This document shows positions 35,301-52,197 of a DNA stretch of 64,000 nt, in pieces. The first letter of the stretch is position 1; each line of letters opens with the position of its first letter. The translations under genes and the position numbers were made by a program. The notes below the pieces were generated by a model. The model did no database searches. It saw only the letters and a list, made by a program, of their open reading frames with translations, and was not told the origin of the DNA. Source of the DNA: a virus; IMG/VR virus record IMGVR_UViG_3300047994_000617, positions 64,626 to 128,625 of that record. One strand, written 5' to 3'.

Positions 35301-38300
35301 CCCAACGAGGTGTTCAGCCTCGCCAATGTCGTCACCGACATCCTCTTCTTCCGCGCCCGCGGCGGCATCCTGGAGAAGGTCGACGAGGCGGACCAGTTCA
35401 TCCTCGACGGCAAATACTACGAGGCGTTCACGGACCACATCCTCGGTACGGTGGTCCCGAACCCGCCCCCCGAACCTGGGCAAGAGGGCAAGCGGCAGTG
35501 GCACACGAGCGCCGAGGGCTACACGGTCGTCGGCGAGTTCAAGGGGCTGCCTCCCGAACTCGAGGAGCGGCCGATGTGCGCCGCATGCGTGCACATGACG
35601 CCGGCGCCGGCGGCGGCCAAGCCGCGCAAGGCCGACAAGCCCCTCGGGCCCCCGCCGACGGCGGCGGAGGCGATGGTCGAGAACGATGAGCGCATGGCGG
35701 CCGCCGTCGGCCTCGGGCGCCGCGTCGAGAAGTTCCTGGCAACCGTTGCCAACCCCGACGTCGAGCCCGTGGGCTGGGAGGAGCTCCACGACGACCTGAC
35801 CCAGTGGGGCGCCAAGCATGGTCCGCCTGCGGCCGACAAGCCCGTCCTGGCGCTGGCCAAGGCCGAGCGCGGGCCGCTCGGCCAGGGGGCCCCTGGGGGC
35901 GCAGGCTGGCTCCTCAAGGCGTTCCTCGGCAAGTCGGCGACCCTGATCGAGCCCCTGGCTGAGAAGCCCTCGTGGATGCCCCGGTACACCGGCAACCCCC
36001 ACGACCCGCTTCAGGTGGGGGAGTACCTCTTCCGGAACAAGAAGGCGCTCACCATCGGCGAGCTGCCCGGCAAGGACGCCGCTCCGCTCTTCGCCGCCGG
36101 GTGGTGCGAGGACTCGACGGCGCCGGCGTGGGTCGAGCGCCTGGACTTCCGCGGGAACCTCTACCCGCCGGACGATTACATGTTCGGGGAGCTGTGGCCG
36201 CGGCTCGACCGGGCGAGGGCCCGCGCCGCTCTCGGCGACACTCAGGCCGCCGCCCAGGCGACGCGGCTCCTGGAGGCGATCCAGCCGGCAACCTTCGACG
36301 AGATCGAGGTGAGCCCCCAGGACGGCTTCGTGCCGCTCGACGTGCTCGGGGAGTGGCTGGACACGATCAACCACGGACACGACGCGCTCACCCTCGTCCG
36401 CGCGGACGGCATCGTCCACATGGCCGGCGTCCCTTACGACGAGCACCTCCCGGGCATCTCGGGGCTCTCGGACGTTGCGCTGATGTGCCTCGGCTGGATC
36501 AACCACGACTACGTGGTCTTCAAGCCGTCTGCCAAGGACGATGACGCTCAGCAGATCGACGCGGATCGACTCATGTACGCGCGCGAATGGACCGAGAAGT
36601 TCCGGGCCTGGCTTGACGCGCGCCCGAAGCCCCAGCGCGCCGTCGAGAATGCCTACCAGCGGGCCCGGCAGGGCTACCGGCAACACGCCTACGGAAGCGC
36701 GCCCCTCCGGCTCGCCCGCTGGAACCCGGCCGTCGTTCTGAACCCCCACCAGATCGCCGGGGCTCGCCGGGTCAACGCAAACAGGGCCGGCGGTCTTGGC
36801 TTCCAGGTCGGCGTCGGCAAGACCTACACGATCCTGGCCGCCCTGGCGCTCGCACGACAGGAAGGGCGGGCGCGCCGGCCCGTCATCTGCGCGCCCCAGA
36901 AGATCGCCTTCCAGTGGATGGCGAACATCAAGAAGGCGCTCCCCGACTTCCGCGTCGTCGTCATCGGCATCAACAAGACGAAGAAAAAGACCGGGGAGGA
37001 CTCCAGCGACACGGACTCCCCGGAGGAGCGCAGCCGCAAGTGGGCCCGCTTCATGGGCGGGGAGTTCGACGTCGCCGTCGTCACCTACGATTCGTTGCCT
37101 CGCACACTGATGGACGAGGAGTCCACCCTCAAGTTCGTGGAGGGCGTGACCGCCATCGAGCGCGAGGTCGCGCTCCGCGCGCGGAACGCCAAGAAATCGG
37201 TAAAGGGCGAGCTGAAGAGGTACGCGGAGGAGAAGGGCGTCATCGATCGGAGGATCAAAAAGCTCGAGGCCACGATTGAGAACCTCACGGACGCCACATG
37301 GCCATCGGCGAGGCCGAAGCTCGCGAAGGCTCGCCAGGACCTCGCGGTGGCCCAGGCGAAGCTGGAGGTCCTCGACAAGAAACACCTCGGGTCGCTGACC
37401 GAGCGCCAGGACGCGATCCTGGAAGAGACCGTCGGCAGGTTCATCGCGGAGATGACCGAGCTCCCGGGCACATGGAAGCCGGACCCCGACATCATCTGGA
37501 ACAAGATCGGCGTCGATTGGATCGCCTTCGACGAGGCGCACAACGGCAAGAACCTGCACATGCCGGCCGACCGCGAGGGCGGCAGCGTGCCCAAGTACAT
37601 GGGCAACGCGGGCGACGGATCGAAGCGCGCATGGCACTGGTTCTTCCGGTGCTGCGACGTCCAGTCCCGCGGCGGCGAGGTCGTGCTGGCGACCGCGACG
37701 CCGGCCTCCAACAGCCCATTGGAGTTCTACAACCTCGTCAAGCTGATGGACAAGGACGCCTGGACCCGGATCGGGATCTACGATCCAGAGGCGTTCATCG
37801 ACAGGTTCTGCATCCTCCAGATCGAGGAGGTCATGAACGCCGAGATGGAGGTCGAGCAGCGCTTGGCCTGTGTCGGCTTCAAGAACGCGGACGAGCTCCG
37901 CTCGGTCATCTACCGGCTCTGGGAGTTCAAGACGGCCAAGCAGGCAGGTCTCAAGCTCCCCGCGGTGACGCAGGAGCGCGTCTTCGTCGACATGGATGCC
38001 GCCCAGGAGCAGAAGTACGTCGATTACGTCAAGGCCATCGAGGACGAGCTCTCCAAACCCAAGATCCCGGGCCAGAAGAGCGGCAAGATCCTCGGCCTGC
38101 TCGCCCGCATGGCGATGGTGTCCATGCACAGCCAGCTCGACGAGGGCTTCAAGTGGAAGACCGCGGGCGCCGTCGACAACCCGCACTCGCCGAAGTTCGA
38201 CGCGCTCGCCAACAACATCCTCAAGATGCCCCACTGCGGGCACATCGTCTTCGCCGACTACATCGCGGCCCACGCATGGATCCGCGACGTGCTCGTCGAG

Positions 38301-39674
38301 GCCGGCATCCCCGCCGATCGCATCGGCATCCTGAACGCCGTGGTTGCGCCGAAGGCGGCCGACCGCCTGCGCATCGCCCGGGAGTTCAACGGCGATGCGG
38401 CCGCGGGGATCCCGCCGAAGTACGACGTCCTCATCTCCAACGAGATCGGCGAGGAGGGCGTGGACCTCCAGGATCGCACCTGCGCGATCCACCAGCTCGA
38501 CGTGGGCTGGACGCCGAAGAAGAACGACCAGCGCATCGGACGCGGGGTGCGCCAGGGCAACACGCTCAGCAACATCCACCTCTACTACTACCTCGCCAAC
38601 CGCAGCCAGGACGGCGTGCGGCTCGACATGGTGCAGGGGAAGCAGAACTGGATCGACAGCCTGCTCGAGGGGAACGCCAGCGTGGTCGCCAACACGGCCG
38701 CCCAGTCGACCCTCTCCCGCAAGGACCTCCTGGTGCTCATCTCCCGCGACCCGGAGGCCACCAGGAAAGCCTTCGAGGCGGCCGAGGCCGAGGCCGAGGA
38801 GAAGCGCAAGGTCAAGGTCGCCAAGGTGGCCACGGACACGCTGCGGGCCGCCGCCAGCCGCTTCGAGCGCGCACGCACCGAGACGGACCAGGCCACCGCC
38901 ACGGAGCTCCTCTCCGCCGCCCGGCAGAAGCTCGCGGGCCTCGCCAAGGTCCCGCCGGACGTCTGGCCCTGGGCAGGCTGGGCGCAGGCTGCGGAGCAGG
39001 CCCCGATGCTGGTCCCGAAGGAGCCGGGCGCCCCCGTCTACGAGGGCCTCCAGGTCGCCATGCCCAAGATGCTCGACCGGAGCGTGATCGAGTGCTCCGA
39101 GTTCGGGCGAATCGACGGCTCCGACATCGGCAGCCGCTTCGCCGGCGCCGCGCACTGGGAGAAGGTCTCGGCCGAAAAGGTCTCCCACCTCCATCTTGAG
39201 CCCCCGATGCGGATCGCCGAGGGCAGCGGCACGCCCTGGCCGGCGGACGACCAGGCCGGCATCGACAAGGCCATGCAGGACCGATGGCTCGACCGGCTCC
39301 GCCACGGCGCCGGCGCGGCCGACGCCTGGCGTGCCCTCGGCTGGGTGTACGGGCCCTCCCGCTGGGTCGAGGCGCAGTGGTCGCGATGGGGACGCGACGT
39401 CGTGGCCGCGCTGGCGAGCACCGGCGGCTGGGCCCAGAACCTCCAGATCCCGGCGCTGCGGAGAGGGCTGCTCGTCCAGGGCCTCACGCCGCCGTTCAGC
39501 GACGTGCTCCCGCCGACCGATGCCGGGTACGAGGAGTTCCTGCGGATCGCGCCGATGGCGGGGCTCAAGTTCACGGAGCTGGAGAACATCGCCGTGTTCT
39601 GGTGGAACCGCGGGATCCCCCGGACCCTGCTCTCGGCGGGCCGCGACGCACAGCCACAGTCGAGGGCCGCATGA
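29391..39674 (+). CDS. 3427-aa DarB-like polyvalent protein: N6-adenine DNA methyltransferase + SNF2/SF2 helicase
   Basis: MTase motif I ALEPSLGIGRF and motif IV NPPY (~34560-35360). Helicase VGVGKT, DEAH, TATPASNS and QRIGRGVRQGN (~36740-38560). The long N-terminal region has SH3/KOW-like and wHTH-like modules. Confidence 0.9.
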   Translation: MGGESGNGQPRGAGGAPAPAAPTRTGGFASLGLAPRPPVPAPAPAPSPAPPPPTRTSGFASLAGRAPPAAPGVRVASPAPATPQARTSGFASLAGRAPAPRPPPPAHPPAHPLVPPITGTPIVRYVGALHPHLTGLEGRVITSASGKATVQWRRPGGGVRLGDRQDPASYAFAELVVLPEGYSEGFKNAAERERATAPAPSVRPPSARPASSRGPSSREARDPFAEENPREAIVRYMGAEPYLRQLEGRVAQRIGHEILVLWRQRGGARYALRAGEPRYVPFKALRVLHGYSPDFRRPGETWPDSQSARGDIPYLTALFAALGDERLAEDAYTAFLGARQWGWLDNKIKIRRVKLALDNSIGEGERSDRALQALAGVDAEGMKWKVGARVTLGARGAYRGRSGTVIAISPFPRYDSREVEIDPEPGDPGKIVEEVRVEDLVNGPLAPATGRAQSAVGGVAAVAPPAAAPEPPVVPPPSLHEEPAPVAAAPTPVVGSIQALRALPVGTRLRQVKNVLGTVERGGGRRIEAQKPKGIVLRVDAPGTKHHGATSDITFSNLGSVEPRPHGFALLDRSKRFLAEYVVEEIPHGAASPAPADDLRARIVAFLQGNPESQMAVIARAVGGPDKPGQDAVFAELRAMRGEDVICHEPKDGRGKVCSLKAAPAATAPAAPPTPTMPGQPRAHHVAIYGGKEVVVDYVPDPRREFSVAAMRVNDNLPTGKTGLVVTPKGQYFLITEGKRTSQLIAPGDVPTALAKHLPGTTMLPAKAAEARADQETPGAAAVSTPQRAAEVLRANLAPRFAGHYLDITAERGVGITVAKTAPHERLGIPSSSLPYSMSIAPSQYATNVQWRDLTVKFTGGDDQKEALEAAGLTVIRRSSDMTPEAAVAKVLAWPGWETLVGIYSAGNQAPEPAHTAPAAPFNPLVVVHVGDTPKHPKWAAIREALRDPGPENRALAATLIEEVNKDRQAAIRRQMARAAMEHNRARLEVAGLTVGEPLARVMAKWIGEGVPTPQDLDAWIAEAGPWTPEPPLPKPAAPAWDPARKEKNLRPGMRLVLERGVHENKRTFLSMEPHVPRAAAPQKKRKKGDAPPPPSQHAARWNFVFRIDDIGPKYGALERIDDVTVVWGPRGFKLVNAAEVYVFGVDATEAAPPSVGTLRATLTEEHRKARVASEVYHKDQAGDWLHHVRSILRTAEAGRAEDKALRDVEDALALQQAPSPRTLDPLRLGRLIEAMEDAQDYEGLRETLIEARELGAHGAPSGQAALFVEASAIGDELGRLNRIKFDPLREKVRKAVALARAHVDRKGPAYAQARDALKAAIAAYRARRPAQAPALPPAEQHAAALVEHQAEALSRKFEEKPPCATEEGVLAATAGEYRTVEEVSGLLGGCDPDLVQKVLTKLADEFKLRKTFTKDKPTRWGHDVPPHREDWAVYRRGADIYGDTSFLTASGQLPGFSVKHLGMGEFVLNTPRGEVEFDRMRGVDFPGQTGRSHLLYATQNPEALALLLKEMRVDERLAEEAAQQPAATAAQQPATLTAQQPATPAAQQPAAGAPASEQAGRPGSAREAAAAPHRLTMAEKAADLWAAFTPSERAAVAAGGIFPAKPMEQAAREGYAGRELTVALMDHAKQQKSAERQAPHGKPEGRPDRVRAALQETSQRVEAARKPTTEAVSSAAGEARAIQAAEDAGTVSPAAMAGVKLSSPPNPDDEAVSDIYAPVEHRTAAARRDANIKAMWLASDLEARPRPLTNDDRLVLAAYSDWGGLGIEKAARKFPPGFPVPEKRQLIHAYFTPPFVCSEIARVTRPLIAGLDGKEEGRIHALEPSLGIGRFPLAFSGPGFEALSWHGVEYSKLSFKMVRALRPDMDLYQGPFESWVTEKGPEFQGRLRLVVSNPPYGERGPAYTKDPDRSYREIRADNYFLRRGLDLLGAGGLGIYIIPSGFLTGKTADARKIREQVLRRHHLSAAFRLPNEVFSLANVVTDILFFRARGGILEKVDEADQFILDGKYYEAFTDHILGTVVPNPPPEPGQEGKRQWHTSAEGYTVVGEFKGLPPELEERPMCAACVHMTPAPAAAKPRKADKPLGPPPTAAEAMVENDERMAAAVGLGRRVEKFLATVANPDVEPVGWEELHDDLTQWGAKHGPPAADKPVLALAKAERGPLGQGAPGGAGWLLKAFLGKSATLIEPLAEKPSWMPRYTGNPHDPLQVGEYLFRNKKALTIGELPGKDAAPLFAAGWCEDSTAPAWVERLDFRGNLYPPDDYMFGELWPRLDRARARAALGDTQAAAQATRLLEAIQPATFDEIEVSPQDGFVPLDVLGEWLDTINHGHDALTLVRADGIVHMAGVPYDEHLPGISGLSDVALMCLGWINHDYVVFKPSAKDDDAQQIDADRLMYAREWTEKFRAWLDARPKPQRAVENAYQRARQGYRQHAYGSAPLRLARWNPAVVLNPHQIAGARRVNANRAGGLGFQVGVGKTYTILAALALARQEGRARRPVICAPQKIAFQWMANIKKALPDFRVVVIGINKTKKKTGEDSSDTDSPEERSRKWARFMGGEFDVAVVTYDSLPRTLMDEESTLKFVEGVTAIEREVALRARNAKKSVKGELKRYAEEKGVIDRRIKKLEATIENLTDATWPSARPKLAKARQDLAVAQAKLEVLDKKHLGSLTERQDAILEETVGRFIAEMTELPGTWKPDPDIIWNKIGVDWIAFDEAHNGKNLHMPADREGGSVPKYMGNAGDGSKRAWHWFFRCCDVQSRGGEVVLATATPASNSPLEFYNLVKLMDKDAWTRIGIYDPEAFIDRFCILQIEEVMNAEMEVEQRLACVGFKNADELRSVIYRLWEFKTAKQAGLKLPAVTQERVFVDMDAAQEQKYVDYVKAIEDELSKPKIPGQKSGKILGLLARMAMVSMHSQLDEGFKWKTAGAVDNPHSPKFDALANNILKMPHCGHIVFADYIAAHAWIRDVLVEAGIPADRIGILNAVVAPKAADRLRIAREFNGDAAAGIPPKYDVLISNEIGEEGVDLQDRTCAIHQLDVGWTPKKNDQRIGRGVRQGNTLSNIHLYYYLANRSQDGVRLDMVQGKQNWIDSLLEGNASVVANTAAQSTLSRKDLLVLISRDPEATRKAFEAAEAEAEEKRKVKVAKVATDTLRAAASRFERARTETDQATATELLSAARQKLAGLAKVPPDVWPWAGWAQAAEQAPMLVPKEPGAPVYEGLQVAMPKMLDRSVIECSEFGRIDGSDIGSRFAGAAHWEKVSAEKVSHLHLEPPMRIAEGSGTPWPADDQAGIDKAMQDRWLDRLRHGAGAADAWRALGWVYGPSRWVEAQWSRWGRDVVAALASTGGWAQNLQIPALRRGLLVQGLTPPFSDVLPPTDAGYEEFLRIAPMAGLKFTELENIAVFWWNRGIPRTLLSAGRDAQPQSRAA

Positions 39675-40597: not shown

Positions 40598-41328
40598 AGG
40601 GCCCCCGGTTCGCGATCCACACCCGCGACGGTGAGGCCGTCTCGGTCGTCACGGCCCGGAACGAGACGGCGGCTTGGAATAAGCTCGCCCACCAACAAGG
40701 CCTCGGCGACGCCAGGCGCGCCGACGCCATGGCACCAGGCTGGCGGGACCGCTTTGTCGTGACGGACACGCGGGACCTACACACATGGAGGATCGTCACG
40801 ACGAAGGGCGCGCAGAACATGGGGGCGTTCCTGGCGCGCACGGCGGCGAGCGCGCTGGACGTGCTGGCCCACAAGCAGCGCTTCCGGAGCGCCAAGCATG
40901 CGGAGGCCCACGAGGCCGGCTGGGCCAAGCGCTACCGGGTTGCGCTTGAGACCGTAGCCGGTGGCCAGGGGGCCGCGAACGACAGTCGCGTATCGGCAGC
41001 AGACTCCGACGTCGAGGACTTCGCCGTGTTCAAGGATGTCGCGACGGGCTGGGGTCCTCCCAAATGGGAGCGCGTCGGCACGGTGTCAGCCGCCACCCCC
41101 GACGATGCCGCGATCGCTGCCAGGTCCCGCTGGTCGGCGGAGGATTCGCTGATGCTTCGGCCGCTCGGGAAGCCTCAATACGGCACCTTCCGCATCTTCC
41201 GGGGTCGCGCGGACCTCGGAGTTTTCGGAGGACGCGACGAGGCCGGGGCGCTCGACGTCGCAGTGCGGGCGGGGACGATCAAGCGGGGCGAGCGCGGGCT
41301 CCGGGTGGTGCAGGAGCGGACCAGATGA
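40594..41328 (+). CDS. Hypothetical protein with RIFRGR..GxFGG module
   Basis: ATGA coupling at both ends. Confidence 0.65.
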   Translation: MKGPRFAIHTRDGEAVSVVTARNETAAWNKLAHQQGLGDARRADAMAPGWRDRFVVTDTRDLHTWRIVTTKGAQNMGAFLARTAASALDVLAHKQRFRSAKHAEAHEAGWAKRYRVALETVAGGQGAANDSRVSAADSDVEDFAVFKDVATGWGPPKWERVGTVSAATPDDAAIAARSRWSAEDSLMLRPLGKPQYGTFRIFRGRADLGVFGGRDEAGALDVAVRAGTIKRGERGLRVVQERTR

Positions 41329-44300
41329 CGAGCGCCAGACAGATCCGAGGCTCCGCCTTCATGGCCTCCCTCCCCCCGGGAGGGGATCCCACCTCCATCC
41401 GGGAGCGGGAGGCCCTCGTCCTCGATGCCGTCCGCCGGGGGATCGCCCAACCCATCACCTGGGCGCCGGTGAAGACCCAGATCCCCGGCCATACGGGGGT
41501 CGTCTACGTCGCCACCGACACCCTCCGCTTCGGGGTGCCCGGGCCCACGAGCACGAGTCTCGTCGCGCCAGCGGACCGCCGCGAATGGGCAGGCGAGCCC
41601 GGTGACTGGAACTGGGTACGGATCGCCGTCACCGCCGACACGGCCCAGAAGATCGCCGACCAACTCGGCGTGCTCCTGCCCACGGACAAGATCCTCGACT
41701 TGGCGCACGCCCAGGCGGACGTCCACCTCACCCCCCACGTCCAGATGAACGTCACCGCCACCACGGAGGGGATGCTTCAGCACCACGTTGCCATCGAGGC
41801 CGAGCGGGCCGGACGCGAGGGGTTGATCTCGACGATCGGCAAGGACTGGATCCTCGGCAACGAACTCTGCCCGCCGCCCTGGGGCGGGCCTCCGGCGCAC
41901 CCGCTGGGTTACGACGGGGCGATCAACTACGGCTGGCACACCGACCAGGCCCCGACCCGGAACGGCCCCTACGTGGCCCAGCCGGGCATCGTGGTGTGGC
42001 AGAGCCGGGGCCTCCGGCACAACCGCGGGCACGTCGACTACAGCCAGTGGGTCCCGCGGTTCGTGGCGCCGTGGATGGAGGTCGACGGCCAGCGGGTGAG
42101 TACCGCGGACGTGATGCAGTCCAAGGAGCTGGCGGGCCTCGTGAGCTACGAGGGGCCGCTGCGGTCGGTCCGGCTGCCGGACGCCCCCTCCCGCAAGCTC
42201 CAGAACCGGACAGCGCGCCCGGGAGCGGGGGAGCGGCCGGCGCCCGAGGCGGCGGACCCCTTCGACGCCCTGGAAGCGGGCGCCCCAAGCCCCACGCCCG
42301 ACACGTTCTACAGGAGCGCCAACGGCGACGTATGGATCGGCACGATCGAAGACGGCATGTTCCGCTGGAACGCGGCCGCGGTCTTCAAGCCGCCGCGCGA
42401 GAAGACGCTGCCGGGGCATGCTTACCGCATCGGGCCGCTCCGCGACTGCGGCGAGGGCGAATGCACTTTCGATCTGCTCGAGGACCTGGAGCTGGTGCCC
42501 GTCCACGGAACCGACATCGACACCAGCGGGGCGTCCCAGGAAGCCCCTTCGCCACCAACCGGCTCTGGTCTCTGTGACCCCTTCGCCGATTACCGCGCCG
42601 AGCACCCCGAAAGCGGCGTCAACGCCTTCGGTCTCGCCTTGTTCGCCAGGATCCGGAGGGCGCCCGGCAATCTCGCGTTCTCGCCGGCCTCGATCTGGAC
42701 GGCCCTCGCGATGCCCTTTGCCGGCGCGCGCGGTGAGACCGCGGAGCAGATGGCGCGGACGCTCGACGACCATCGGACGAGCCGCGAGATCGTGCCCGCC
42801 GCCGGCGTGGTCGTCTCCCGCATCAACGAGCCCCGCCCCGGCACGACAATCCGCCTCGCCAGCCGCCTCTTCGGCGCCCAGGGCTACCCCTTCCAGCCCG
42901 CCTACCTGAGGCTCACCCGGGAGACCTTCGGGGCCCCGCTCGAGCCCGTCGACTTCGGAGCCGCCGAAGCGGCCCGCGCGCGCATCAACGGGTGGGTCGC
43001 CGAGCAGACCGAGGACCGGATCAAGGACCTCCTGCCCGAAGGCAGCGTCGACAGCCTCACGCGCCTCGTGCTCGTCAACGCGATCTACTTCCTCGGCAAG
43101 TGGGCGGCGCCCTTCGAGGCCACCGGGACCCGCCCCGCGCCCTTCCACGCCAGCCCCACGGACGTCCGCCAGGTGCCGACGATGGCGCAGACCCTCCACT
43201 GCCGCTTCGCCGACGTCGCCGGCGTGAAGCTGGCGGAGCTGCCCTACCGCAACAACGACCTCGCCATGCTCCTCGTCCTCCCCGCGGAGGTGGACGGCCT
43301 CGCCGCCCTCGAGGCCCGGCTCTCCCCAGCGGTCCTCGCCGACTGGGTAGGCGCGCTCTCCGAGGCCCGCGTCCGCGTCCGGCTGCCGAAGTTCGAGATC
43401 GCCCCCGAGGGCTTCTCCCTCGGCGCCGCGCTCAAGGCCCTGGGGATGCCGCTCGCGTTCGACCCGGCCCGGGCCGACTTCACAGGCATCGCCGAACCCA
43501 CGAGCTCCACCGAGCGGCTCTTCCTGTCCGACGTCTTCCACAAGGCGTTCGTCAAGGTGGACGAGGAGGGGACAGAGGCCGCGGCGGCGACGGCGATCGT
43601 GGCGAAGGCGGTGTCGATGGATCCGCGGCCCGAGGCGGACTTCAACGCCGACCACCCCTTCCTGTTCTTCCTGAGGGACACGAATACGGGGATGGTGCTC
43701 TTCATGGGCCGCGTCAGCGACCCGGCCGCCAGCGCCCCCGGCACGCGCGATGCCGGCGAGCCGCTTTTGCTGGGTCCCACCGATCCCTCTTTCGACTTGG
43801 CGGAGACCGGCGCGCCCGAGGCCGGGTCCAAGGTGATCGACCTCGGCGACCACATCCTCCGGTTCGTCAATTCGTTCCGCGATGCGAAGTTCCTGGGGAT
43901 CACTTTCCCCGGCCAGTGCGGCGGGATGGCCTCCACCGTCCTCGACTACTTCTTCGCCGACCGCCCAGCGCCGACCGGCAGGACGACGCCTCCCGTGAGC
44001 GATCCGCTCGGCGCCTACATCCAGGGCCGCCAGCAAGACTCTCTCCTCTTCGGCGGGAACATCGCGCACTTCGCCAAGATGCTCGTCAACCCCGACGACG
44101 CGGACATCGCGCGGCAGTCGGCAGCCTCTTTCGCCGAGGTCCGGCGCGCCATCGACGCGGGGAAGCCCGTGCTCCTCGGGCTCATCCCCCATCCGTGGTC
44201 GCTCGACCCAAGGAAAGTCACGCGCGCACACCAGGTCGTGGCGCACGGGTACATGGTCGGCGACGACGGGGGCCGCTCGGTACTCATCTGGGACCCGAAC

Positions 44301-47300
44301 CGGCCGCTCGTGAGCGGCAACTACCTCTACCAGGCCGCAGGCACGCTGCACTGGATCGAGCCCGCGACGCCCACGCTCCGCTCGGTGGAGTGGCGGGGGT
44401 TCTTCGTCGAAGCGGGCTACGTGCCCAGGGATCCACCGAAAGTCGAGGAGATGATGGCCACGAACGATGCCGGTGCGCCCGCGGACCCCTTCACGGCGCT
44501 CGACGCGGCCGACCCACTCGACGTGCTCCAGGAGAAGGTGCTCGACCCGCTCCACGAGGCCGCGAAGGGGACGTGGTTGGAGAACGTGCGGACGGCCCAA
44601 CGCGACTACCTGAAGAGCACCTGGGTCGCCGACACGAAGCTCGGCGACTTCCTCCGCCTCAACGATCCGCCTCCGCCGGCGCCCCCGGCGATCCCCGCCG
44701 AGGGCGCGACGTTCGAGCTCTACCCGAAGCCCCTGAAGCTCAGCCCCGAGGCCGGCGATCCCGCAGCGGAGCCCGAGCCGAGCCGCACCGACGTGCTCCT
44801 CGAGGTCCTCCGGATGCGCCGAGAGCGGCACGTCGCGCCCTTCTCCAGTTGCAACATCACCGGCGCCGAGTGGAGCGAGGCGGAGGCCCGGGCGCGCGCC
44901 GCAGCGGCGAGGGCGCGGAGCAACCTCGACGCTGGCAACCTCGACCTCGACGCCGGCGACGCCCAGGGGGACCAGGCGCTCGCCGCGGCGGGCAAGGGGG
45001 CGGGGATCGGCGCGGCGGTGGGGACGGTGCTCGAAGCCGTGCCGGTCGTCGGCCCTCTGCTCCACGTCGTCGCAGTCGTCGTCGGGGCCATCGCCGGGGC
45101 CATCGCGGGCGCCACGATGGACACCTTCCATCTGGAGACGCCGGTCGTCGCCGCCGGCCTCGTGGTCGCGATGCACGTCCTGCCGAACCTGCTTTTCAGC
45201 GGGATCGACACGGTGACCGTCGACAACGGCACCAACAAGCATCCGCCCGAGGAGCACGCGGCGCGCCTGGCCCGATACCTCCTGCTCTGCATGGGCGCCG
45301 TCCCGAACTCCTGGAAGCTCTACAACCCGAACGACTTCCACAGCCACGACAACCCGTACATGGAAGCGGTCGATCCCCGCTTCCCCCTCACCGATCCCCG
45401 CTACGACGCGCGGATCAAGGCGGCCGTGTCCCGGGGCATCCTCCTGCCGCCGGACGTGTCGACGCCAGCCCAGGCGCAGGCGCTGCTCCTCGCGTTCCGC
45501 GCGATCCTGGCACCCTCCAAGCTCCTCCAGTGGAGCCAGGTGCAGGCCCACCTCCCCCAGCTCCGCCGCAACATCCAGCACCTCCGCGCCCTCGCCGGCG
45601 AGACGGGCGACGACCCGGAGCTCCGCATCGCGCTCGGGGGCGACGTCCAGCCGCACTTCTTCTACCCGCACGGGACCCACGTGGCTCCGCGGCACGTCCA
45701 GGCGCCTCGGCCCGCGCCGGCGGCACCGCGCCCGATCCTTCGTCTTCCGGCCCCCCGGCGCCCCCTCGCGCCGGCGCCGCCCGATCCCTTCAGGGATCTC
45801 CGACCCCAGCCAGAGACCAGGAGCCCCACGATGACCACGGACGCACCGGAGGACCCCTTCCAGACGCTCACCGACGCGGGCGCACCCGCGGATGCCGGTG
45901 AAGCAGGCGCTCCTCCCGAACCGTGGAGACTAAAGGACCCGACGTGGCGTCCCGTCGTGGTGCGCGAGGCGACCGCGGCGGACCTGCACCAACAGGGCTG
46001 GCTCCCCGCGTATTCAAAGGGCGCCAAGGTCTTCGCCGTGCCTCCTGGGGTGGGCGGCGGATGGGTCGACCTGGGGGGTCGAACCGCGGTCGGGTACTAT
46101 TTCTCGCCGCAAGAACCGTGGCGCGGCGCCTCCGTGGGGGACAGCCCGCCCGGTGAGATCCTCCCGGCGATCACCAACGGATCGGTCTCCGGGTACCCCG
46201 TCGACTCGCGCGACTGGAGTCAGGGGATCCTCGGAGAAGCCGGCACCTGGACCTACTTCCGGTTCAAGGAAAACCGCCGCATTCCTCTCGCCTCCGGGAT
46301 CCGAGACGTGGCGCGCGCCGACGCGACGACGCGCGAGAACTACGGCAGCTTCACCGAGCCGATCACGATCTACCGCGTGCCAGCCGACGGCACCGGGGAG
46401 TGGGTCGTGGTCTTCACGAACCGGAACTGGAAGTACGACCGCTACCGCTACGACCGCGACGCGTGGATGCACTTCGACAGGACGCTCGCCAGCGGCGTGC
46501 CCGAGGGCGAGGCGGAGGCGCGCGACCGCCAGATCCAGGGCGACGAGCGCCGAATGGGGGAGCCCAACGTCGTCGTCCTGCGCACGCCGAGCGACGACTG
46601 GATGGAGCACCGCTTCGTGTGGGACACGAAGCAGGGCGGCGTGCCGGAGCCGGGGAGCGGCGCGTACGGCATGGCGCCGGGCGCGCCGAAGCGGAGCGAG
46701 ACCGCAGGCGCCGAGGGCGGGGGCGAGCCTAGCTCCTTCGCCGGCGGCTCTCTGGTGTCGATCTGGCACCCCACCGATCAGCGCTGGCAGGACGTCGCCC
46801 GCACCCAGCCCGGCCCGCGGGGCGCAGACCTCGCCACCGACGTCGGCACCCTCTGCGCCAAGGCGCTCTCCGTCCGGTTCCCGGGCCCCCTCTTCGTCCA
46901 GGTGATCCGCCGCACGCCGGGCTCCCGGGGCGTCACCCTGCTCGTCGCGCGCGACGGGCAGGCCACGGCGCAGGAGTTCCCCGCCGGGGGCGTGGAGCCC
47001 TCCTGGCCGGGCTGGACGCGGGCCTCCGGCGTGGCGCCCACCCGTCCACGCCCCGGCCGCTACGACGGCGACGGGGACACGTTCGCCTCGAGCTCGACCG
47101 TCTCGATGTGGATCGCCCGAGGTGGCACCTGGGAGGACCTCGCCGAGGCGCTCCCGCACCGAGACGTCGACATCGGCAGCCTCCTCGCCAAGCACGTCGT
47201 CCATTCGACCGCGCAGAAGTCGACCCGCACCGCCCGCGCCCGCTGCGTGCGGCGAGGCGCCGATGGGGCGCCGATGGAGACGACCCTCTTCGCCTGCCGG

Positions 47301-50300
47301 CCCGGCGGCGACGTCCACGCGGAGCGGTTCTCCGCCGGCGAGGCGCCGAGCTGGGCGCGGCTCCCCGAAGGCGACACGGGCGGACCAGAGGCCGAGGGCA
47401 CTCCCGGCAACCCGGCGGACTTCATCGGCGGCGGGATCGTATCGCTCTGGATCCCCCAGGCGGGGCGCTGGGAAGACGTCGCTCGCACCAAGCCTGGAGC
47501 TCGGGGCGCCGGCCTCGCCCAGGAGCTCGGCGCCCACCTGCTCGGCGTGCTCGCGCAGACCGTGCCCGGTGAGCCCGTGTTCGGGGTGGTCGTCCAACGC
47601 GACGCCGCCCAGAAGGGCATGCTGCTCTTCGCCAAGGCCCGCGGCGGCGCGATCGCGGGCGAGTGGTTCCCCGCCGGGAGCGCACCGCACTGGCCGTGGT
47701 GGGCGCAGGAAGCCCGTCTCGCGCCCCCGCCGCGATCGGCCGCCTACCAGGGCGACGCCGACATCTTCGAGCACGGCTCGCTCGTCTCGCTCTTCAACCG
47801 CGCGGCGGGCGCGTGGGAGGACCTCGCCGAGTCCCGTCGCACGGGGCCGTTCGACCTGAGCCCGGAGATCGCCGGGTTCATGGCCCGCGACTTCGCGGAC
47901 CGGGCGCAGCTCGCCGGCCTCGCCCGCTACGTGAAGCGCGACCCGCGCACATGGACGGGGACCGTCCTCGTGGCCTGCGGTCCCGGCGGCAAGCCCCGGG
48001 AGGAGCACTTCCCGACGGGGACGACGCCCACCTGGGGGAAGCTGCTCTCGGCGGGGGAGACCGGAAAGGCGGCCGAGGCCGGCGGCCCGGCCGAACCGAG
48101 CGCCGGGCCGAACCTCTACGTCCGGCCCACGCGGGGTCTCGATCGCGCGCAGCGACGGCGCGGGGCCCGCGCGGCATGGACGCTCTCCGAGTACGTGCGC
48201 TCGCTTCCAGGTGCTGCGGAGTGGTTCAACAACGTCTTTCCCGTCGTGATGCCACGCAGGCCCGAGAGCGATCAGGAGAGCATCGTCCTGGAAGCGCTCG
48301 CCTACGAGGGCAAGCCCATCGGCAGCGCGGTACCTGAGCAGTGGATGGGCTTCAAGGTCGTGCCGAAGAACTGGACGATCGACGCTGTGCGCCAGTTGGG
48401 CCGGGGCGTTGACCTCGGCATGATGAACGCGAACGGCACGTTCCAGGCCATCCGGGGCAGTGATGTGAAGGGCTACATGGACGTGCCGCGCGGCATGGTG
48501 TCGGGGCACGCCTACCGCATCCGTCCGCTGTCCGTTGAGTGGCAGCCTGGGGAGCGCATCGAGATCGTCGAAGACCTCGGGATTAGGCCGATCCATGCCG
48601 GGAACGAGTTCGACGACTGGGACGTCATCATCGGCACCGACCCCGATGCGGACGCGGGCGCTCCCCCTGGCGCCATCGAGCGCGAGCTCACCCGAGAGAT
48701 CGCCGCCAACCTCGCCCTCTGGTGCCGCGCCTGGCCGGTGGCCTGCGACCCCGAGGACTTCGGCACGCCGGCCGACCTGCGGGGCCTGTGGACGATCCGC
48801 GGTGCGAAGGCGCTCCGGAGCTTCCAGGAGTGGTTCAACGATCGCGCGCGCGCCTCGGTGCTGCCGGTCGACGGCATCCGGTGGCCCGGCACGACCAGGG
48901 CGCTCGCGGCCTGGGCGTCGGGCGCGAGCGGCGAGGCTGGCGATCCGCTCGACACGCTGCAAGCTGGGCTGCTCGATCCTCTGCACAAGTTCGCCGAGGA
49001 AGCCGCCCCGGAGATCGAGCAGGCGCGGCAGGCCCAACGGAACTACCTGAAGGGCACCTGGGTCAGGGACTCGGCGCTCGGGAGGTTCCTGCGCCTCGAC
49101 GTCCCCGATCCCGTGACACCCGTCACGCTGACCCCGGAGCCTCCGCCGTCCTACCCGGTCGTGCCGGTGCCGTCGCGAGCGAAGCCCCCGCGCCGGGCGC
49201 CGAGCGGATCGCCACCCCTGCGCGCGCCGCAGACCATCCTGACCCCGGAAGCCAGCAAGCGGAACGCCTTCCTCGCGGACGTGGGCGCGCTCCCGGCAGA
49301 CCCCTTCGAGGACATCCTCGACGTCGGCGACATCGATCCAGCCCAGTGCGCCGCGCTGGCGACCCTGCTCGCCCAGCTCGATCGCCGGTTCCCGTTCCGG
49401 GGAAAGGGCCCGCTCGACGGGCTCGCGGAGACCGATCAGGGCGTGCCCTACCTCCGAGTGACCGGCGATCCCGGTCGCACCGTCGGCGGGACGCGCACCG
49501 GGCCCGACCTCCGGGCGCTGAAGCGCGCGGTGATGGGCGATCCCCGTGCGGAGCAAGCCTACGAGGCGGTCGAGGACGGCGCCCGCTACCTGGTCGTCGT
49601 CGCCAAGCCGCTCCCGGCTCGCCGCCAGGACCCTTCCGCCTGGGATCTGGGCGCGCTCGCTCCGCGCGGCGAGGCATCCGGCGCGGGCAGTGGTGAGACG
49701 GGCGACGAGGCGGGCTTCCCCTGGGTAGCGGTCGGTGTTCTCGCGCTGATCGGACATTTCATCGCGCGATCCTTCCCTCCCACGGACGACAAGGCCGAGG
49801 CGATCAACGCGTACCGGGCTGCCGTCGCGAAGGGGCTCACGGACCAGCAACTCGGCGAGGCAACGCCCAAGCTCCTCGCCAACCTGGGTGGCCGGGCAGG
49901 GTGCGAGAACATTCTCGACGCCATCGAAGGGACGCGAACGCCGGACAGCCTTACGGACCAGAACCAGCGCTCGACCTACAACATCCTGAGCGGAGCGTTT
50001 CGTGGGGGCGAACCGGGCGATCTGATGCGCTCGATCTTCCGGGACCTCGGCGGCGCGCCCGGGGCGCGCAAGCTCCTCGCGGCGCTCTACAGCGGTGGCC
50101 CGACGGCCGATCTCACGCCCCTTGGCCAGCGGGTCGCCCGCACGGTCGGCAGCAAGATGCGCGCGGAGCACGGCGACGCGAGCGGTCCCCTCGAACCCTG
50201 GGGAGCAGCGTTCGAGCTCGTCCATCAGGTGGACCGTCTCTGGCCGAACAGGTCGCGGATCCACGACGGCGTGTGGGAGGGCAAAGAGCCGCACGCGGAG

Positions 50301-50921
50301 ACCGGGACGGGCCGAGCGCTCTTCGTGGGCTTCACCTACGACCCGGACAAGGGCCTCACCCGCGCCGACTTCGAGCGGATCCTGGGCGGACTCGCCCGCG
50401 ATCCACGCTACCTCGCGCACTATACGGGAAACGCCCGGGAGCCGTGGCGCATCGTGCTCGCTCTCGAGACCGCGGCTGACTGCAGCCCGTGGAACTTCTC
50501 GGGAGGGCAGACGGGAGGGCCCAGTCCGGAGACCGCCGGCGCCGGCGAGCCCTTTGCGGCCCTGACCACGCTGCTCAACCAGATCAACGCGCGCTACCCC
50601 AACCGGGACACCGGCCGCCAGGACGGGATCCAGACCGAGGGAGGCCGCTTCGCGCTGGCGATCACCGAGGACAAGGCCGCGCACATCGGCGCGCGCCTCC
50701 CGTCCCTCGCACAGCTCGCCGCCGCGGTCCGGGCCGATCCGCGCTGTGAGCGGGCGGAGTTGCTCGAGCCGCACTTCTGGAACTCGACCGAGGTCCCCTA
50801 CCTGCGGATCTTCACCCGAGCGGGATCGGCCTCCGAGGACGACCGGCGCTGGAACCTCTCCGCGCTCGGCGGGAGCGACACCGGCGAGGCCACCCAGCCG
50901 AGGACGAGCGCCCGGTGCTGA
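41325..50921 (+). CDS. ~3198-aa mosaic protein: unknown N-terminal domain, serpin, papain-like (C39-like) protease, hydrophobic hairpin, PG-binding-like domain, internal repeats
   Basis: Serpin ~42615-43724 (FSPASI..VNAIYFLGKW..VDEEGTEAAAAT..FNADHPFLF..LFMGRV). Protease GQCGGM/HQV/WDPN ~43830-44440. ALRSFQ..LPVDGI..T..AL ~48750-48920. Confidence 0.85.
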   Translation: MTSARQIRGSAFMASLPPGGDPTSIREREALVLDAVRRGIAQPITWAPVKTQIPGHTGVVYVATDTLRFGVPGPTSTSLVAPADRREWAGEPGDWNWVRIAVTADTAQKIADQLGVLLPTDKILDLAHAQADVHLTPHVQMNVTATTEGMLQHHVAIEAERAGREGLISTIGKDWILGNELCPPPWGGPPAHPLGYDGAINYGWHTDQAPTRNGPYVAQPGIVVWQSRGLRHNRGHVDYSQWVPRFVAPWMEVDGQRVSTADVMQSKELAGLVSYEGPLRSVRLPDAPSRKLQNRTARPGAGERPAPEAADPFDALEAGAPSPTPDTFYRSANGDVWIGTIEDGMFRWNAAAVFKPPREKTLPGHAYRIGPLRDCGEGECTFDLLEDLELVPVHGTDIDTSGASQEAPSPPTGSGLCDPFADYRAEHPESGVNAFGLALFARIRRAPGNLAFSPASIWTALAMPFAGARGETAEQMARTLDDHRTSREIVPAAGVVVSRINEPRPGTTIRLASRLFGAQGYPFQPAYLRLTRETFGAPLEPVDFGAAEAARARINGWVAEQTEDRIKDLLPEGSVDSLTRLVLVNAIYFLGKWAAPFEATGTRPAPFHASPTDVRQVPTMAQTLHCRFADVAGVKLAELPYRNNDLAMLLVLPAEVDGLAALEARLSPAVLADWVGALSEARVRVRLPKFEIAPEGFSLGAALKALGMPLAFDPARADFTGIAEPTSSTERLFLSDVFHKAFVKVDEEGTEAAAATAIVAKAVSMDPRPEADFNADHPFLFFLRDTNTGMVLFMGRVSDPAASAPGTRDAGEPLLLGPTDPSFDLAETGAPEAGSKVIDLGDHILRFVNSFRDAKFLGITFPGQCGGMASTVLDYFFADRPAPTGRTTPPVSDPLGAYIQGRQQDSLLFGGNIAHFAKMLVNPDDADIARQSAASFAEVRRAIDAGKPVLLGLIPHPWSLDPRKVTRAHQVVAHGYMVGDDGGRSVLIWDPNRPLVSGNYLYQAAGTLHWIEPATPTLRSVEWRGFFVEAGYVPRDPPKVEEMMATNDAGAPADPFTALDAADPLDVLQEKVLDPLHEAAKGTWLENVRTAQRDYLKSTWVADTKLGDFLRLNDPPPPAPPAIPAEGATFELYPKPLKLSPEAGDPAAEPEPSRTDVLLEVLRMRRERHVAPFSSCNITGAEWSEAEARARAAAARARSNLDAGNLDLDAGDAQGDQALAAAGKGAGIGAAVGTVLEAVPVVGPLLHVVAVVVGAIAGAIAGATMDTFHLETPVVAAGLVVAMHVLPNLLFSGIDTVTVDNGTNKHPPEEHAARLARYLLLCMGAVPNSWKLYNPNDFHSHDNPYMEAVDPRFPLTDPRYDARIKAAVSRGILLPPDVSTPAQAQALLLAFRAILAPSKLLQWSQVQAHLPQLRRNIQHLRALAGETGDDPELRIALGGDVQPHFFYPHGTHVAPRHVQAPRPAPAAPRPILRLPAPRRPLAPAPPDPFRDLRPQPETRSPTMTTDAPEDPFQTLTDAGAPADAGEAGAPPEPWRLKDPTWRPVVVREATAADLHQQGWLPAYSKGAKVFAVPPGVGGGWVDLGGRTAVGYYFSPQEPWRGASVGDSPPGEILPAITNGSVSGYPVDSRDWSQGILGEAGTWTYFRFKENRRIPLASGIRDVARADATTRENYGSFTEPITIYRVPADGTGEWVVVFTNRNWKYDRYRYDRDAWMHFDRTLASGVPEGEAEARDRQIQGDERRMGEPNVVVLRTPSDDWMEHRFVWDTKQGGVPEPGSGAYGMAPGAPKRSETAGAEGGGEPSSFAGGSLVSIWHPTDQRWQDVARTQPGPRGADLATDVGTLCAKALSVRFPGPLFVQVIRRTPGSRGVTLLVARDGQATAQEFPAGGVEPSWPGWTRASGVAPTRPRPGRYDGDGDTFASSSTVSMWIARGGTWEDLAEALPHRDVDIGSLLAKHVVHSTAQKSTRTARARCVRRGADGAPMETTLFACRPGGDVHAERFSAGEAPSWARLPEGDTGGPEAEGTPGNPADFIGGGIVSLWIPQAGRWEDVARTKPGARGAGLAQELGAHLLGVLAQTVPGEPVFGVVVQRDAAQKGMLLFAKARGGAIAGEWFPAGSAPHWPWWAQEARLAPPPRSAAYQGDADIFEHGSLVSLFNRAAGAWEDLAESRRTGPFDLSPEIAGFMARDFADRAQLAGLARYVKRDPRTWTGTVLVACGPGGKPREEHFPTGTTPTWGKLLSAGETGKAAEAGGPAEPSAGPNLYVRPTRGLDRAQRRRGARAAWTLSEYVRSLPGAAEWFNNVFPVVMPRRPESDQESIVLEALAYEGKPIGSAVPEQWMGFKVVPKNWTIDAVRQLGRGVDLGMMNANGTFQAIRGSDVKGYMDVPRGMVSGHAYRIRPLSVEWQPGERIEIVEDLGIRPIHAGNEFDDWDVIIGTDPDADAGAPPGAIERELTREIAANLALWCRAWPVACDPEDFGTPADLRGLWTIRGAKALRSFQEWFNDRARASVLPVDGIRWPGTTRALAAWASGASGEAGDPLDTLQAGLLDPLHKFAEEAAPEIEQARQAQRNYLKGTWVRDSALGRFLRLDVPDPVTPVTLTPEPPPSYPVVPVPSRAKPPRRAPSGSPPLRAPQTILTPEASKRNAFLADVGALPADPFEDILDVGDIDPAQCAALATLLAQLDRRFPFRGKGPLDGLAETDQGVPYLRVTGDPGRTVGGTRTGPDLRALKRAVMGDPRAEQAYEAVEDGARYLVVVAKPLPARRQDPSAWDLGALAPRGEASGAGSGETGDEAGFPWVAVGVLALIGHFIARSFPPTDDKAEAINAYRAAVAKGLTDQQLGEATPKLLANLGGRAGCENILDAIEGTRTPDSLTDQNQRSTYNILSGAFRGGEPGDLMRSIFRDLGGAPGARKLLAALYSGGPTADLTPLGQRVARTVGSKMRAEHGDASGPLEPWGAAFELVHQVDRLWPNRSRIHDGVWEGKEPHAETGTGRALFVGFTYDPDKGLTRADFERILGGLARDPRYLAHYTGNAREPWRIVLALETAADCSPWNFSGGQTGGPSPETAGAGEPFAALTTLLNQINARYPNRDTGRQDGIQTEGGRFALAITEDKAAHIGARLPSLAQLAAAVRADPRCERAELLEPHFWNSTEVPYLRIFTRAGSASEDDRRWNLSALGGSDTGEATQPRTSARC

Positions 50922-51723: not shown

Positions 51724-52197
51724 ATGGAGACGACCGTCATCGCCCAACAGGCCCGAATGCTGCTCATCGCCCTGTGGGCGAGGCTCAACTGGAAGACCAC
51801 CCTTCTCGGGGTGCTCTCCGCGACCGCGGTCGTCCTTCAACGCATCCCGGACGCTTCGCCGCACTGGCAGGACGTCGTGGCGGCGGTCGCCCTGACCGTG
51901 CTCGGCGCGCTCGGGGTCGACCCAAACCGGTTGCCCGCGGGCGAAACCACGGCGTCGGCGCTGCTCTCGTGGGCGCAGATCAACTGGCAGACCACGCTGG
52001 CCGGCGTGGTCACCGCCGGCGTGGTGGTGCTCCAGCGCGACGGGATGCTGCACTGGCAAGACGGGGTGGCCGCCCTGCTGCTCACAGCGCTCGGTGCGCT
52101 CGCTGTGGATCCCCACCGCGTGCCGGTGCCGTCCGTCGCCCCCCGGCCCGCCACGCCCGCCGATCCCCCTGCCCCCTCCCCCTCGACCCCGCAGTGA
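51724..52197 (+). CDS. Holin-like membrane protein with internal duplication
   Basis: Two copies of NW[KQ]TTLxG..HWQD.VAA..LT.LGAL.VDP; strong RBS GGAGG. Confidence 0.6.
   Translation: METTVIAQQARMLLIALWARLNWKTTLLGVLSATAVVLQRIPDASPHWQDVVAAVALTVLGALGVDPNRLPAGETTASALLSWAQINWQTTLAGVVTAGVVVLQRDGMLHWQDGVAALLLTALGALAVDPHRVPVPSVAPRPATPADPPAPSPSTPQ

Follow-up and report, generated by a model that had tools for sequence, protein, structure and literature searches.

Few protease inhibitors have been studied as thoroughly as the serpins. Those known from viruses are mainly poxvirus proteins that stand alone and serve immune evasion, among them CrmA, a small stand-alone protein that carries Asp at the P1 position of its reactive loop and targets caspases. 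In bacteria, chloropin of Chlorobium limicola (PDB 8GXV) is described as a proven inhibitor whose P1 residue, Arg383, was mapped by mass spectrometry (PMC10090351). A further point of comparison is the polyvalent proteins, which, as set out in the main text of the survey by Iyer et al. (2017), are delivered together with DNA by phages and conjugative elements, and among whose commonest components is a pair of methylase and SF2 helicase domains with DarB of phage P1 as archetype (PMC5512222). Here, we describe a predicted inhibitory-type serpin that lies inside a giant mosaic protein encoded by a bacterial mobile element. The DNA analyzed, a stretch of 64,000 nucleotides with 72% G+C that we call the window, comprises positions 64,626 to 128,625 of record IMGVR_UViG_3300047994_000617 and is the second half of this single record of 128,625 bp, which is catalogued in IMG/VR as a virus.

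The serpin domain and its reactive loop

The domain matches the Pfam family Serpin over profile positions 3-370 of 370, with an E-value of 1.2e-104 and 350.9 bits against a cut-off of 27. Among solved structures, 202 distinct sequences matched it at E <= 0.001, and the top matches, chloropin (8gxv_A, 9.3e-76) and human SERPINB1 (4ga7_A, 2.1e-72), extend over the full length. A chance match is excluded, and the domain carries the signature of the serpin superfamily (MEROPS I4) from end to end.

The hinge of inhibitory serpins follows a consensus with Glu at P17, Gly at P15, Thr or Ser at P14, small uncharged residues at P12-P9 and no Pro. The hinge found here, EEGTEAAAAT, conforms to it, with Glu at P17, Gly at P15, Thr at P14 and Ala from P12 to P9. 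The stretches NxxFSPxS, GKW..PF, FHKAF and DHPFLFF...GRV.DP, which we take to be the conserved shutter and breach positions, are also present, and they are invariant or nearly so in an alignment of 31 rows. Judged from these sequence features, the serpin is of inhibitory type. An earlier note on this DNA, made from its letters alone, had reported a complete serpin with this hinge in nearly the same place, and the family search bears it out.

Counting from P17, P1 falls 16 residues further on, the spacing that the reactive loop requires, and the residue reached is Val763 (codon at 43611-43613). The alignment with chloropin is gapless across the reactive loop and places the mapped P1 Arg opposite the same Val763. 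Because the count and the alignment agree, we assign P1-P1' to Val763-Ser764, as the earlier note had done by counting, and we predict a Val-Ser specificity. The hinge is identical to that of chloropin, which is also the best structure match, and the two reactive loops are of equal length. In contrast, chloropin is a stand-alone protein of ~375-430 amino acids with Arg at P1, whereas the window's serpin is internal to a protein of 3,198 amino acids and has Val at this position. With CrmA and the other SPI serpins of poxviruses, the module shares its inhibitory type, its location on a viral or mobile genome and, presumably, a capture from the host lineage. However, Asp is not found at P1, and since this residue is Val, a caspase specificity of the CrmA type is not indicated. 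The host, moreover, is bacterial, and the serpin is a cassette of a mosaic protein and not a stand-alone product like CrmA, which the earlier note had mentioned.

Both the serpin and the C39-like domain that begins 35 residues past its end are internal segments of one open reading frame (ORF), P0002, and neither is a separate gene. The earlier note had described an intact serpin next to a protease; both are indeed present, but it had missed that they are parts of the same polypeptide. The open frame on the + strand spans 41064-50921 in the ORF listing of the window, and the G+C content at third codon positions (GC3) of the giant ORF is 0.89. The ATG at 41325 is most likely the start of the gene because it overlaps, as ATGA, with the stop of the preceding gene. 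A database copy of the protein, 100% identical, starts at Met13 (3,186 amino acids) and is located on a contig of 684,557 bp. Pfam, NCBIfam and PHROGs recognized no curated families in the giant protein beyond the serpin and the C39-like domain, and the PHROGs search of the protein returned no match.

A mosaic family and the origin of its serpin cassettes

Internal comparison, relatives and family scans divide the giant protein into modules A, B1, serpin, C39-like, C1 and a glycine-zipper module, followed by an unassigned region, four repeats, B2, C2 and three copies of module G. The glycine-zipper module, which is membrane-like and has weak glycine-zipper Pfam matches alone, is the signature of a family of mosaic proteins. 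An exhaustive HMMER search with it, run on 1.84 billion proteins, gave 58 representatives at E <= 0.001, and many of these are stand-alone proteins of ~300 amino acids whose C-terminus forms a hydrophobic anchor. Pfam scans of these 58 together with P0005 recognized a serpin in P0021 and P0060 (2 of the 58) and in P0005, as well as SpoIID in one protein, glutaredoxin in two, a transglutaminase-like core in one and SH3 in one; P0067 and P0069, which showed scattered Pfam matches without a matched stretch, were disregarded.

The architectures, read from pairwise alignments, reveal how freely these modules are combined. P0005 (2,012 amino acids) consists of the membrane module, a serpin (48% identical to the window's), unrelated sequence, module G and a helical module, while P0060, a fragment, has a serpin (52%), module C and the membrane module, with no C39-like domain in between. 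P0073 (1,275 amino acids) carries module A (60%), a C39-like domain (60%), the membrane module (46%), G, C and G, and no serpin; P0074 has a C-terminal C39-like domain, again without a serpin. P0015 combines G, C, the membrane module, SpoIID and glutaredoxin. In species-representative genomes we found one relative locus, L005, in a metagenome-assembled genome (MAG) titled 'uncultured delta proteobacterium' (G001). There, a protein of 1,124 amino acids carries modules C, G, serpin, G and A and is followed by a protein of 468 amino acids with the membrane module and G. Stop-codon read-through joining three same-frame ORFs of this locus was considered and rejected: the first stop is a TGA within an ATGA overlap, whose ATG is out of frame, and the second is a TAA.

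Serpin cassettes thus occur in five family members, namely the window's protein, P0005, P0021 (truncated within its serpin), P0060 and the L005 protein, and their hinges are intact wherever visible. The region downstream of the serpin can be seen in three of the relatives (P0005, P0060 and L005), and a C39-like domain follows in none of the three. Among the sequences compared, the adjacency of serpin and C39-like domain is peculiar to the window's protein, which argues against an obligate pair of inhibitor and enzyme.

At most module borders we observed a junction motif, DPFxx[L/I], often followed by AGAP. DPF occurs 6 times in the giant protein, against 0.67 expected from its own composition, and 28 times in 66 family proteins, against 4.5 expected. 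The motif is found also in P0005, P0073, P0017, P0020 and L005, and one L005 family protein terminates at a true stop codon 6 residues past it. These junctions could be cleavage sites, docking motifs or linker signatures. The DNA that they have in common amounts to 9 bases only, GACCCCTTC, too short to argue that they are recombination sites, and we dropped this idea. The mosaic proteins are a rare family of shuffled modules that a recurrent DPFxxL motif links. For the non-serpin part of the giant protein, no relatives were found in phages, plasmids or viral contigs, and a metagenome scan yielded one contig of 1.9 kb.

The serpin cassette itself has close relatives among stand-alone bacterial serpins. 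We scored 8,000 candidates, of which 7,923 reached E <= 0.001, and used the best 120. These are 52-59% identical to the window's module, and the closest cover 92-96% of the domain. Eight of the best 120 carry an organism name, and seven of these are Myxococcota (two Byssovorax, Pendulispora, Hyalangium, a Polyangiaceae bacterium, Chondromyces and Sorangium, with the taxonomy checked for two); the other is Nevskia. Inspected by eye, 10 of 13 N-termini showed a lipoprotein-like hydrophobic leader ending in Cys.

The earlier note had proposed a phylogeny as a check, and in the trees that we built against stand-alone serpins the window's module nests among those of Myxococcota. In a FastTree phylogeny of 70 rows (4 family modules, 62 of the 120 stand-alone serpins and 4 outgroups), P0005, P0021 and P0060 form a clade with support 99, and the window's module lies elsewhere among stand-alone serpins, with support 89-92. 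An IQ-TREE phylogeny of 37 rows, including 31 of the 120, agrees on the placement of the window's module. The approximately unbiased (AU) test did not reject a single clade of the four modules (p 0.643), and the constrained tree was 6.17 log-likelihood units better. On this phylogenetic evidence, the Myxococcota serpin radiation is clearly the source of the cassette, which may have been captured once or more than once. The module is 53-59% identical to the lipoprotein-like serpins of Myxococcota. In contrast to it, these are stand-alone proteins of ~440-450 amino acids, most with a signal peptide and a lipobox-like Cys (by eye). Among the best 120, the sole fusion to another module is that of P0092 to a GNAT-type domain.

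Another locus of G001 (L029, C1:486000-505900) encodes two tandem host-type serpins of 583 and 440 amino acids, which lie near VgrG/DUF2169 type VI secretion genes and a gene for a patatin-like phospholipase.

Serpins are scarce in the viral sequences that we searched. The phage-database search, which the earlier note had also suggested, gave 2 matches to the serpin domain in 50,697 phage records, both from unannotated gut 'Bacteriophage sp.' and 26.5-30.7% identical. Two serpin patterns run against IMG/VR identified 12 loci, all at most 38% identical and with open frames of 336-708 amino acids; several of these are rich in A+T and may come from viruses that infect eukaryotes. In a search of long proteins, P0005 was the sole family relative with a serpin, the other 10 matches being animal or unrelated large bacterial proteins. 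Literature searches found neither 'polyvalent proteins' together with 'serpin' nor 'phage-encoded serpin', and nothing related on serpin, myxobacteria and prophage combined. The main text of the polyvalent-protein survey, supplements aside, has 0 occurrences of 'serpin' and 'protease inhibitor' (PMC5512222), and that of a phylogeny of 6,000 serpin sequences has 0 occurrences of 'phage', 'myxo', 'fusion' and 'multidomain' (PMC8233489). We found no description in the literature of a serpin as an exchangeable cassette of giant mobile-element proteins.

The C39-like domain, the other modules and the mobile element

The earlier note had placed a C39-like domain directly after the serpin. The motifs on which it relied, GQCGGM, HQV and WDPN, are present, but the family match is marginal: Peptidase_C39_2 (PF13529) scores 19.7 bits in the whole protein, under the cut-off of 24, and 24.2 bits (E 5.4e-5) on the isolated segment of 256 amino acids. 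The match spans the His-Asp half of the domain. One query against 5.8 billion clusters returned only three homologues, P0073, P0074 and P0075 (63%, 54% and 58% identity), the first two of which score 21.5 and 26.1 bits against the same family. Cys865, within G[QL]CGGM, is kept in all three sequences that cover it, and His969, Asp990 and Asn992 are invariant in four of four, so the catalytic Cys, His and Asp/Asn of clan CA peptidases are all in place. In a feature search of the ESM Atlas, the nearest cluster, auto-named 'Peptidase C39-like domain-containing protein', scored 0.97 and shared 219 of 256 features.

The evidence for the fold is weak. AlphaFold2 gave a mean predicted local distance difference test (pLDDT) value of 33.1 for the segment as a single sequence and of 52.9 with an alignment of 4 rows, the latter with values of 60-88 over residues ~98-208. 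Foldseek found no match to this low-confidence model at E <= 0.001; its weak top rows were 9jdd_A, a type VI effector domain (BtaeB CTD; 7.7e-3), and two staphopains. With VIA-align, the best Z was 6.4 (9jdd_A), below the typical background of 7-8, and 22 of the 50 matches listed were papain-type cysteine peptidases, as judged from their titles. They include IdeS, interpain, streptopain, staphopain, calpains, cathepsins, the C39 domain of PCAT1 and two 'C39-like' entries. The likeness to C39 peptidases thus consists of the marginal Pfam match, the invariant Cys, His and Asp, and a weak resemblance to PCAT1 (Z 3.8) and the C39-like entries (Z 3.5-3.6). The domain differs from them in having neither an ABC-transporter fusion nor a double-glycine leader context. 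Neither the giant protein nor its neighbours have an ABC-transporter family by Pfam, and because this transporter is absent, the domain is not a bacteriocin-processing C39 peptidase. We take it for a probable cysteine peptidase of papain fold that is related to C39-like families, with marginal support. A predicted complex of the serpin (31 rows) with the C39-like domain (4 rows) scored 0.00, which is evidence neither way.

The remaining modules lack an assigned function. Module A has no match in Pfam, NCBIfam or PDB; it is 60% identical to the N-terminus of P0073 and 51-57% identical to the copies in G001. Its look-alike clusters in ESM are hypothetical proteins, 86-90% viral (Uroviricota), which we take as a lead only. 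B1 and B2 were recognized by internal BLAST (362-399 versus 2392-2430, E 1e-4), as were the tandem repeats (1801-1920 versus 2029-2148, 41% identity, E 6e-25). Each of these repeats opens with G.[LI]VS[IL]W....W[QE]D[VL]A; they are up to 41% identical to one another and match no known family. Module G, which is present also in P0005, P0073, P0015 and L005, has no Pfam, NCBIfam or PDB match. A resemblance of the P0015 copy to LAS/M15 zinc peptidases, noticed by eye, was unsupported by any search and was dropped. Likewise, a stretch at aa ~2440-2535 resembled a peptidoglycan-binding domain by eye alone, and we make no claim for it. All features are located in Table 1.

Table 1. Features of the giant protein, its upstream neighbours and related loci of G001. 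Residues are numbered in P0002 from the ATG at 41325; positions refer to the window unless a G001 contig is given.
Feature	Residues	Position	Strand	Basis or remark
Giant mosaic ORF P0002	3,198 aa	41325..50921	+	Contains serpin and C39-like domain
Module A	1-300	41325..42224	+	Conserved GK.W, NY..H, H...H.DY.Q
Module B1	~315-405	42267..42539	+	Repeated at aa ~2340-2430 (B2)
Serpin domain	432-800	42618..43724	+	Pfam PF00079; PDB 8gxv, 4ga7
Hinge P17-P8, EEGTEAAAAT	747-756	43563..43592	+
Predicted scissile bond, P1 Val763 - P1' Ser764	763-764	43611..43616	+	Count from P17; chloropin alignment
Degenerate junction motif DPSFDLAETGAP		43782..43817	+	Serpin/C39-like border; resembles DPFDALEAGAP at aa 311
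C39-like module	836-1038	43830..44438	+	Pfam C39_2, ESM Atlas, conserved Cys/His/Asp
GQCGGM	863-868	43911-43928
AHQVV	968-972	from 44226
WDPN	989-992	from 44289
Candidate catalytic Cys865	865	43917-43919
Candidate catalytic His969	969	44229-44231
Candidate catalytic Asp990	990	44292-44294
Junction motif ADPFTALDAADP		44481..44516	+
Further junction motif copies		42252-42287, 42573-42593, 45780-45800, 45849-45869, 49296-49319
Junction motif variants		48939-48962, 50544-50567
Module C1	~1060-1120			Repeated at aa 2537-2599 (C2), 54% identity
Glycine-zipper hydrophobic (transmembrane-like) module and conserved domain	~1215-1450	44967..45674	+
Four tandem repeats of ~115 aa	~1790-2260	46692..48104	+	Internal BLAST
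Three module G copies		49326-49694, 50187-50510, 50547-50879 (within 49326..50879)	+
Hydrophobic segment		49716-49775		Between module G copies, as is a helical stretch
Upstream giant gene	3,353 aa from this start	29613..39674	+	ORF opens 29391; N6-adenine methylase and SNF2 helicase, DarB-like
Two small ORFs between the giants	308 and 244 aa	39671..41328	+	Gene calls, ATGA overlaps
DarB-like/module-A locus of G001 (L007)		C18:592521-597365
DarB-like/module-A locus of G001		C18:1003423-1009211
DarB-like/module-A locus of G001		C8:22386-27289

Upstream of the serpin gene lies a second giant, in which Pfam recognizes Eco57I/N6_Mtase, SNF2-rel_dom and Helicase_C, and PHROGs phrog_11801 ('DNA methyltransferase', 1e-144) and phrog_10089 ('DarB-like antirestriction', 1.7e-55). 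A tblastn search with it matched 67 phage records, including genes annotated as DarB-like in several phages. The two small ORFs between the giants have no Pfam, PHROG or NCBIfam family. Because stops and starts overlap (ATGA), the four genes, from the DarB-like giant to the serpin giant, look translationally coupled. The small ORFs share a similar C-terminal stretch, FRIFRGR...G.FGG...A.DVAVRAG..KRGERGLRVV.

The serpin giant resembles polyvalent proteins, which have two or more domains of disparate activity in one polypeptide, in its great size, in combining unrelated activities on a mobile element (it unites protease inhibitor, membrane module and repeats with a domain like those of cysteine peptidases) and in having a DarB-type giant as neighbour; the methylase-helicase pair is located in that neighbouring gene and not in the serpin giant. 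SpoIID, which is carried by mosaic relatives, is listed in the main text of the survey, which also names four peptidase superfamilies, MPTase, assemblin-like, DD and LonC (PMC5512222).

The 128.6-kb record contains 114 called genes, mostly co-directional and with overlapping stops and starts; Pfam and PHROGs were run on 112 of them and the two giants were scanned apart. Among the products are the replication proteins DnaB, a DnaC-like loader and a 5'-3' exonuclease, two C5 methylases, an FtsK/SpoIIIE-type ATPase (L003:9110-11131, equal to G000 45110-47131), Rha- and Ant-like regulators, ParA, a serine recombinase at the end of the record, a GH25 endolysin-like protein and a separate protein with SGNH and SpoIID domains. 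The earlier note's setting of a virus-like element agrees with this content. The record is probably a predicted provirus excised from a larger contig, because the identical protein is recorded on the 684,557-bp contig mentioned above.

Relatives of the element are integrated elsewhere. L005, a locus of 20.7 kb, has homologues of six other element genes (g10, g12, which encodes PP2C, g15, g16, g33 and g57). G001, a MAG of 11.2 Mb, contains at least three DarB-like giants, one of them 66% identical within an open frame of 4,547 amino acids, three further module-A genes and a second element-type serpin (C18:891 kb) that has an in-frame TGA and a partial Pfam match. We conclude that these are a family of integrated mobile elements in Myxococcota-like genomes, either prophages or elements of another kind, conjugative or integrative ones included.

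Contigs of public moss metagenome runs, possibly the source of the record itself, carry the whole stretch of 4.5 kb, and short difference-free pieces of the gene occur in four further runs: X3 and X5 (moss), X7 (organism A) and X8 (peat). The contigs from these four runs are short pieces whose joints, with sides of ~21 letters, are unreliable. No RNA runs covering the stretch were listed.

Several other genes of the element deserve mention. It encodes a eukaryote-like Ser/Thr kinase (window 15067-16665), a PP2C phosphatase (L001:9818-10651) and a dual-specificity phosphatase (L002:13150-13611), and a PP2C homologue also adjoins the serpin locus in L005. Directly downstream of the giant, at 52194-58357, lie genes for a LigT-like phosphoesterase, two PAPS-reductase-like proteins, each near a DUF6884 gene, and a NUDIX protein; this cluster may be a nucleic-acid modification or counter-defence island. 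Finally, a protein of 342 amino acids with EF-hand motifs and a transglutaminase-like core (L003:13616-14644, equal to G000 49616-50644) sits in a block of unassigned genes that includes an ORF of 2,095 amino acids.

What the serpin may do for the element

Among the roles put forward in the earlier note, protection against host proteases fits best, because the nearest serpins are apparent Myxococcota lipoproteins and the co-fused modules are related to membrane or cell wall; the target of the serpin, like the delivery or packaging of the giant protein, is something that we infer. Thus, we hypothesize, giving the idea about an even chance, that the element captured an envelope serpin of the host clade, which now, as cargo of a polyvalent-type protein, traps a host envelope protease on the element's behalf. 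In our model, the giant protein on which the serpin rides would be delivered or exposed upon entry of the element into a cell or its exit from one. The serpin would keep its ancestral role, the trapping of an envelope or secreted serine protease, now for the element. The target would prefer a small aliphatic P1, as an elastase-, alpha-lytic- or subtilisin-like protease might; it would cut Val763-Ser764, remain attached as an acyl-enzyme and be inactivated upon loop insertion, the serpin acting as a suicide substrate. As a result, the delivered proteins of the element, or a protease-dependent step, would be shielded from host envelope proteases. Because the serpin is internal, the giant protein would be divided by this same cut: the protease would retain the N-terminal part, and solely the two C-terminal serpin strands would hold on to the C-terminal part, a consequence not described for stand-alone serpins. 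The C39-like module would be a separate, independently shuffled cargo that processes the polyprotein or cuts host targets.

Several observations weigh against this model. The giant protein has no N-terminal signal peptide, which leaves the route of the serpin to the envelope unexplained. The gene scan with Pfam and PHROGs revealed no candidate target protease encoded in the element, and no protease lies within 20 kb of the tandem serpins of L029. The counted P1 is Arg in P0005, P0060 and L005 and Val in the window, so the target class is not conserved across the family. Of the hub domains of polyvalent proteins, MPTase, MuF, ArdC-N and methylase-helicase, Pfam and PHROGs found none in the giant. 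Nor did they find a capsid, portal, terminase or clear tail family in the 128-kb record; when the PHROGs search for virion genes was relaxed to E 0.5 on 24 unassigned proteins, it returned a single weak 'tail protein' match (window 5471-6238, E 6.5e-5). Because no virion families were found, the term virus rests on the source label and on phage-type accessory genes. Finally, the operon neighbours, a DarB-like giant and DNA-modification genes, fit a cytoplasmic anti-defence role equally well.

Such an anti-defence role is possible, and we rate it as rather unlikely. Here the serpin, injected or expressed early together with the DarB-like protein, would trap a protease that executes or activates host immunity, as a bacterial counterpart of CrmA; candidates are a trypsin- or subtilisin-like effector of STAND/Avs-type systems, or a gasdermin-activating or CBASS/CRISPR-associated protease. 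It would account for the shared operon, for a surrounding region rich in genes of DNA-modification and counter-defence type (two C5 methylases and PAPS-reductase-like, DUF6884, NUDIX and LigT genes), and for the missing signal peptide, and serpins can inhibit across protease classes. However, P1 is Val and not Asp, so that a caspase-type signature is absent, the nearest homologues look like exported lipoproteins, the modules fused alongside serpins in the family point to membrane and cell wall (glycine-zipper; SpoIID and SH3 in relatives), and no defence protease was identified as a target. A bolder version, in which an injected counter-immunity weapon acting beside DarB traps an abortive-infection protease and doubles as a protease-triggered release latch, the same cut freeing the downstream peptidase and membrane modules, strikes us as a long shot. 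The earlier note had also considered a brake, whereby the serpin would keep the neighbouring C39-like peptidase inactive until delivery through cross-class inhibition. The two domains do lie on one polypeptide at the short distance given above, and some serpins, SERPINB3 and MENT, inhibit papain-like peptidases and are both among the PDB matches of the window's serpin. This reading is nonetheless disfavoured because the adjacency is not conserved: the C39-like domain is absent after the serpin in P0005, P0060 and the L005 protein, it occurs without a serpin in P0073 and P0074, one query found no homologue of it in G001 despite the serpin-bearing modules there, and each of the two domains is flanked by its own junction motif. 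We hold a brake to be improbable.

A serpin fold can also be kept for other ends, as the non-inhibitory serpins ovalbumin and maspin illustrate. In a family with rampant cassette shuffling, the module could be a scaffold, a binding domain or a captured cassette without a role, inhibiting nothing, and the interrupted serpin copy at C18:891 kb of G001 would agree with this. Against it stand the hinge, in which Gly P15, Thr P14 and the Ala residues of P12-P9 are preserved, the full-length Pfam match, the intact conserved positions, and the recurrence of the serpin in five family members whose hinges are intact where visible; we consider a passenger role to have only a slight chance. Lastly, the region might not be mobile at all, the giant being an envelope protein encoded by an ordinary chromosomal gene. 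The 684,557-bp contig with the identical protein, the Mb-size contigs of the G001 relatives and the lack of virion or conjugation-pilus genes recognizable by Pfam or PHROGs would agree with this. In contrast, the record is catalogued as viral, its dense, mostly co-directional array includes DnaB, the DarB-like giant, ParA, a serine recombinase, GH25 and methylases, and G001 holds several diverged copies of element genes, as expected for mobile DNA. We regard a chromosomal origin as very improbable.

To return to the captured envelope serpin, a module that acts as predicted would mean that host proteolysis stands in the way of bacterial mobile elements and that they actively disarm it. The locus would then be a clean case of a mobile element capturing an inhibitor of its host, and the DPFxxL cassette family would offer a natural system for the assembly, and perhaps the cutting, of very large delivered proteins.

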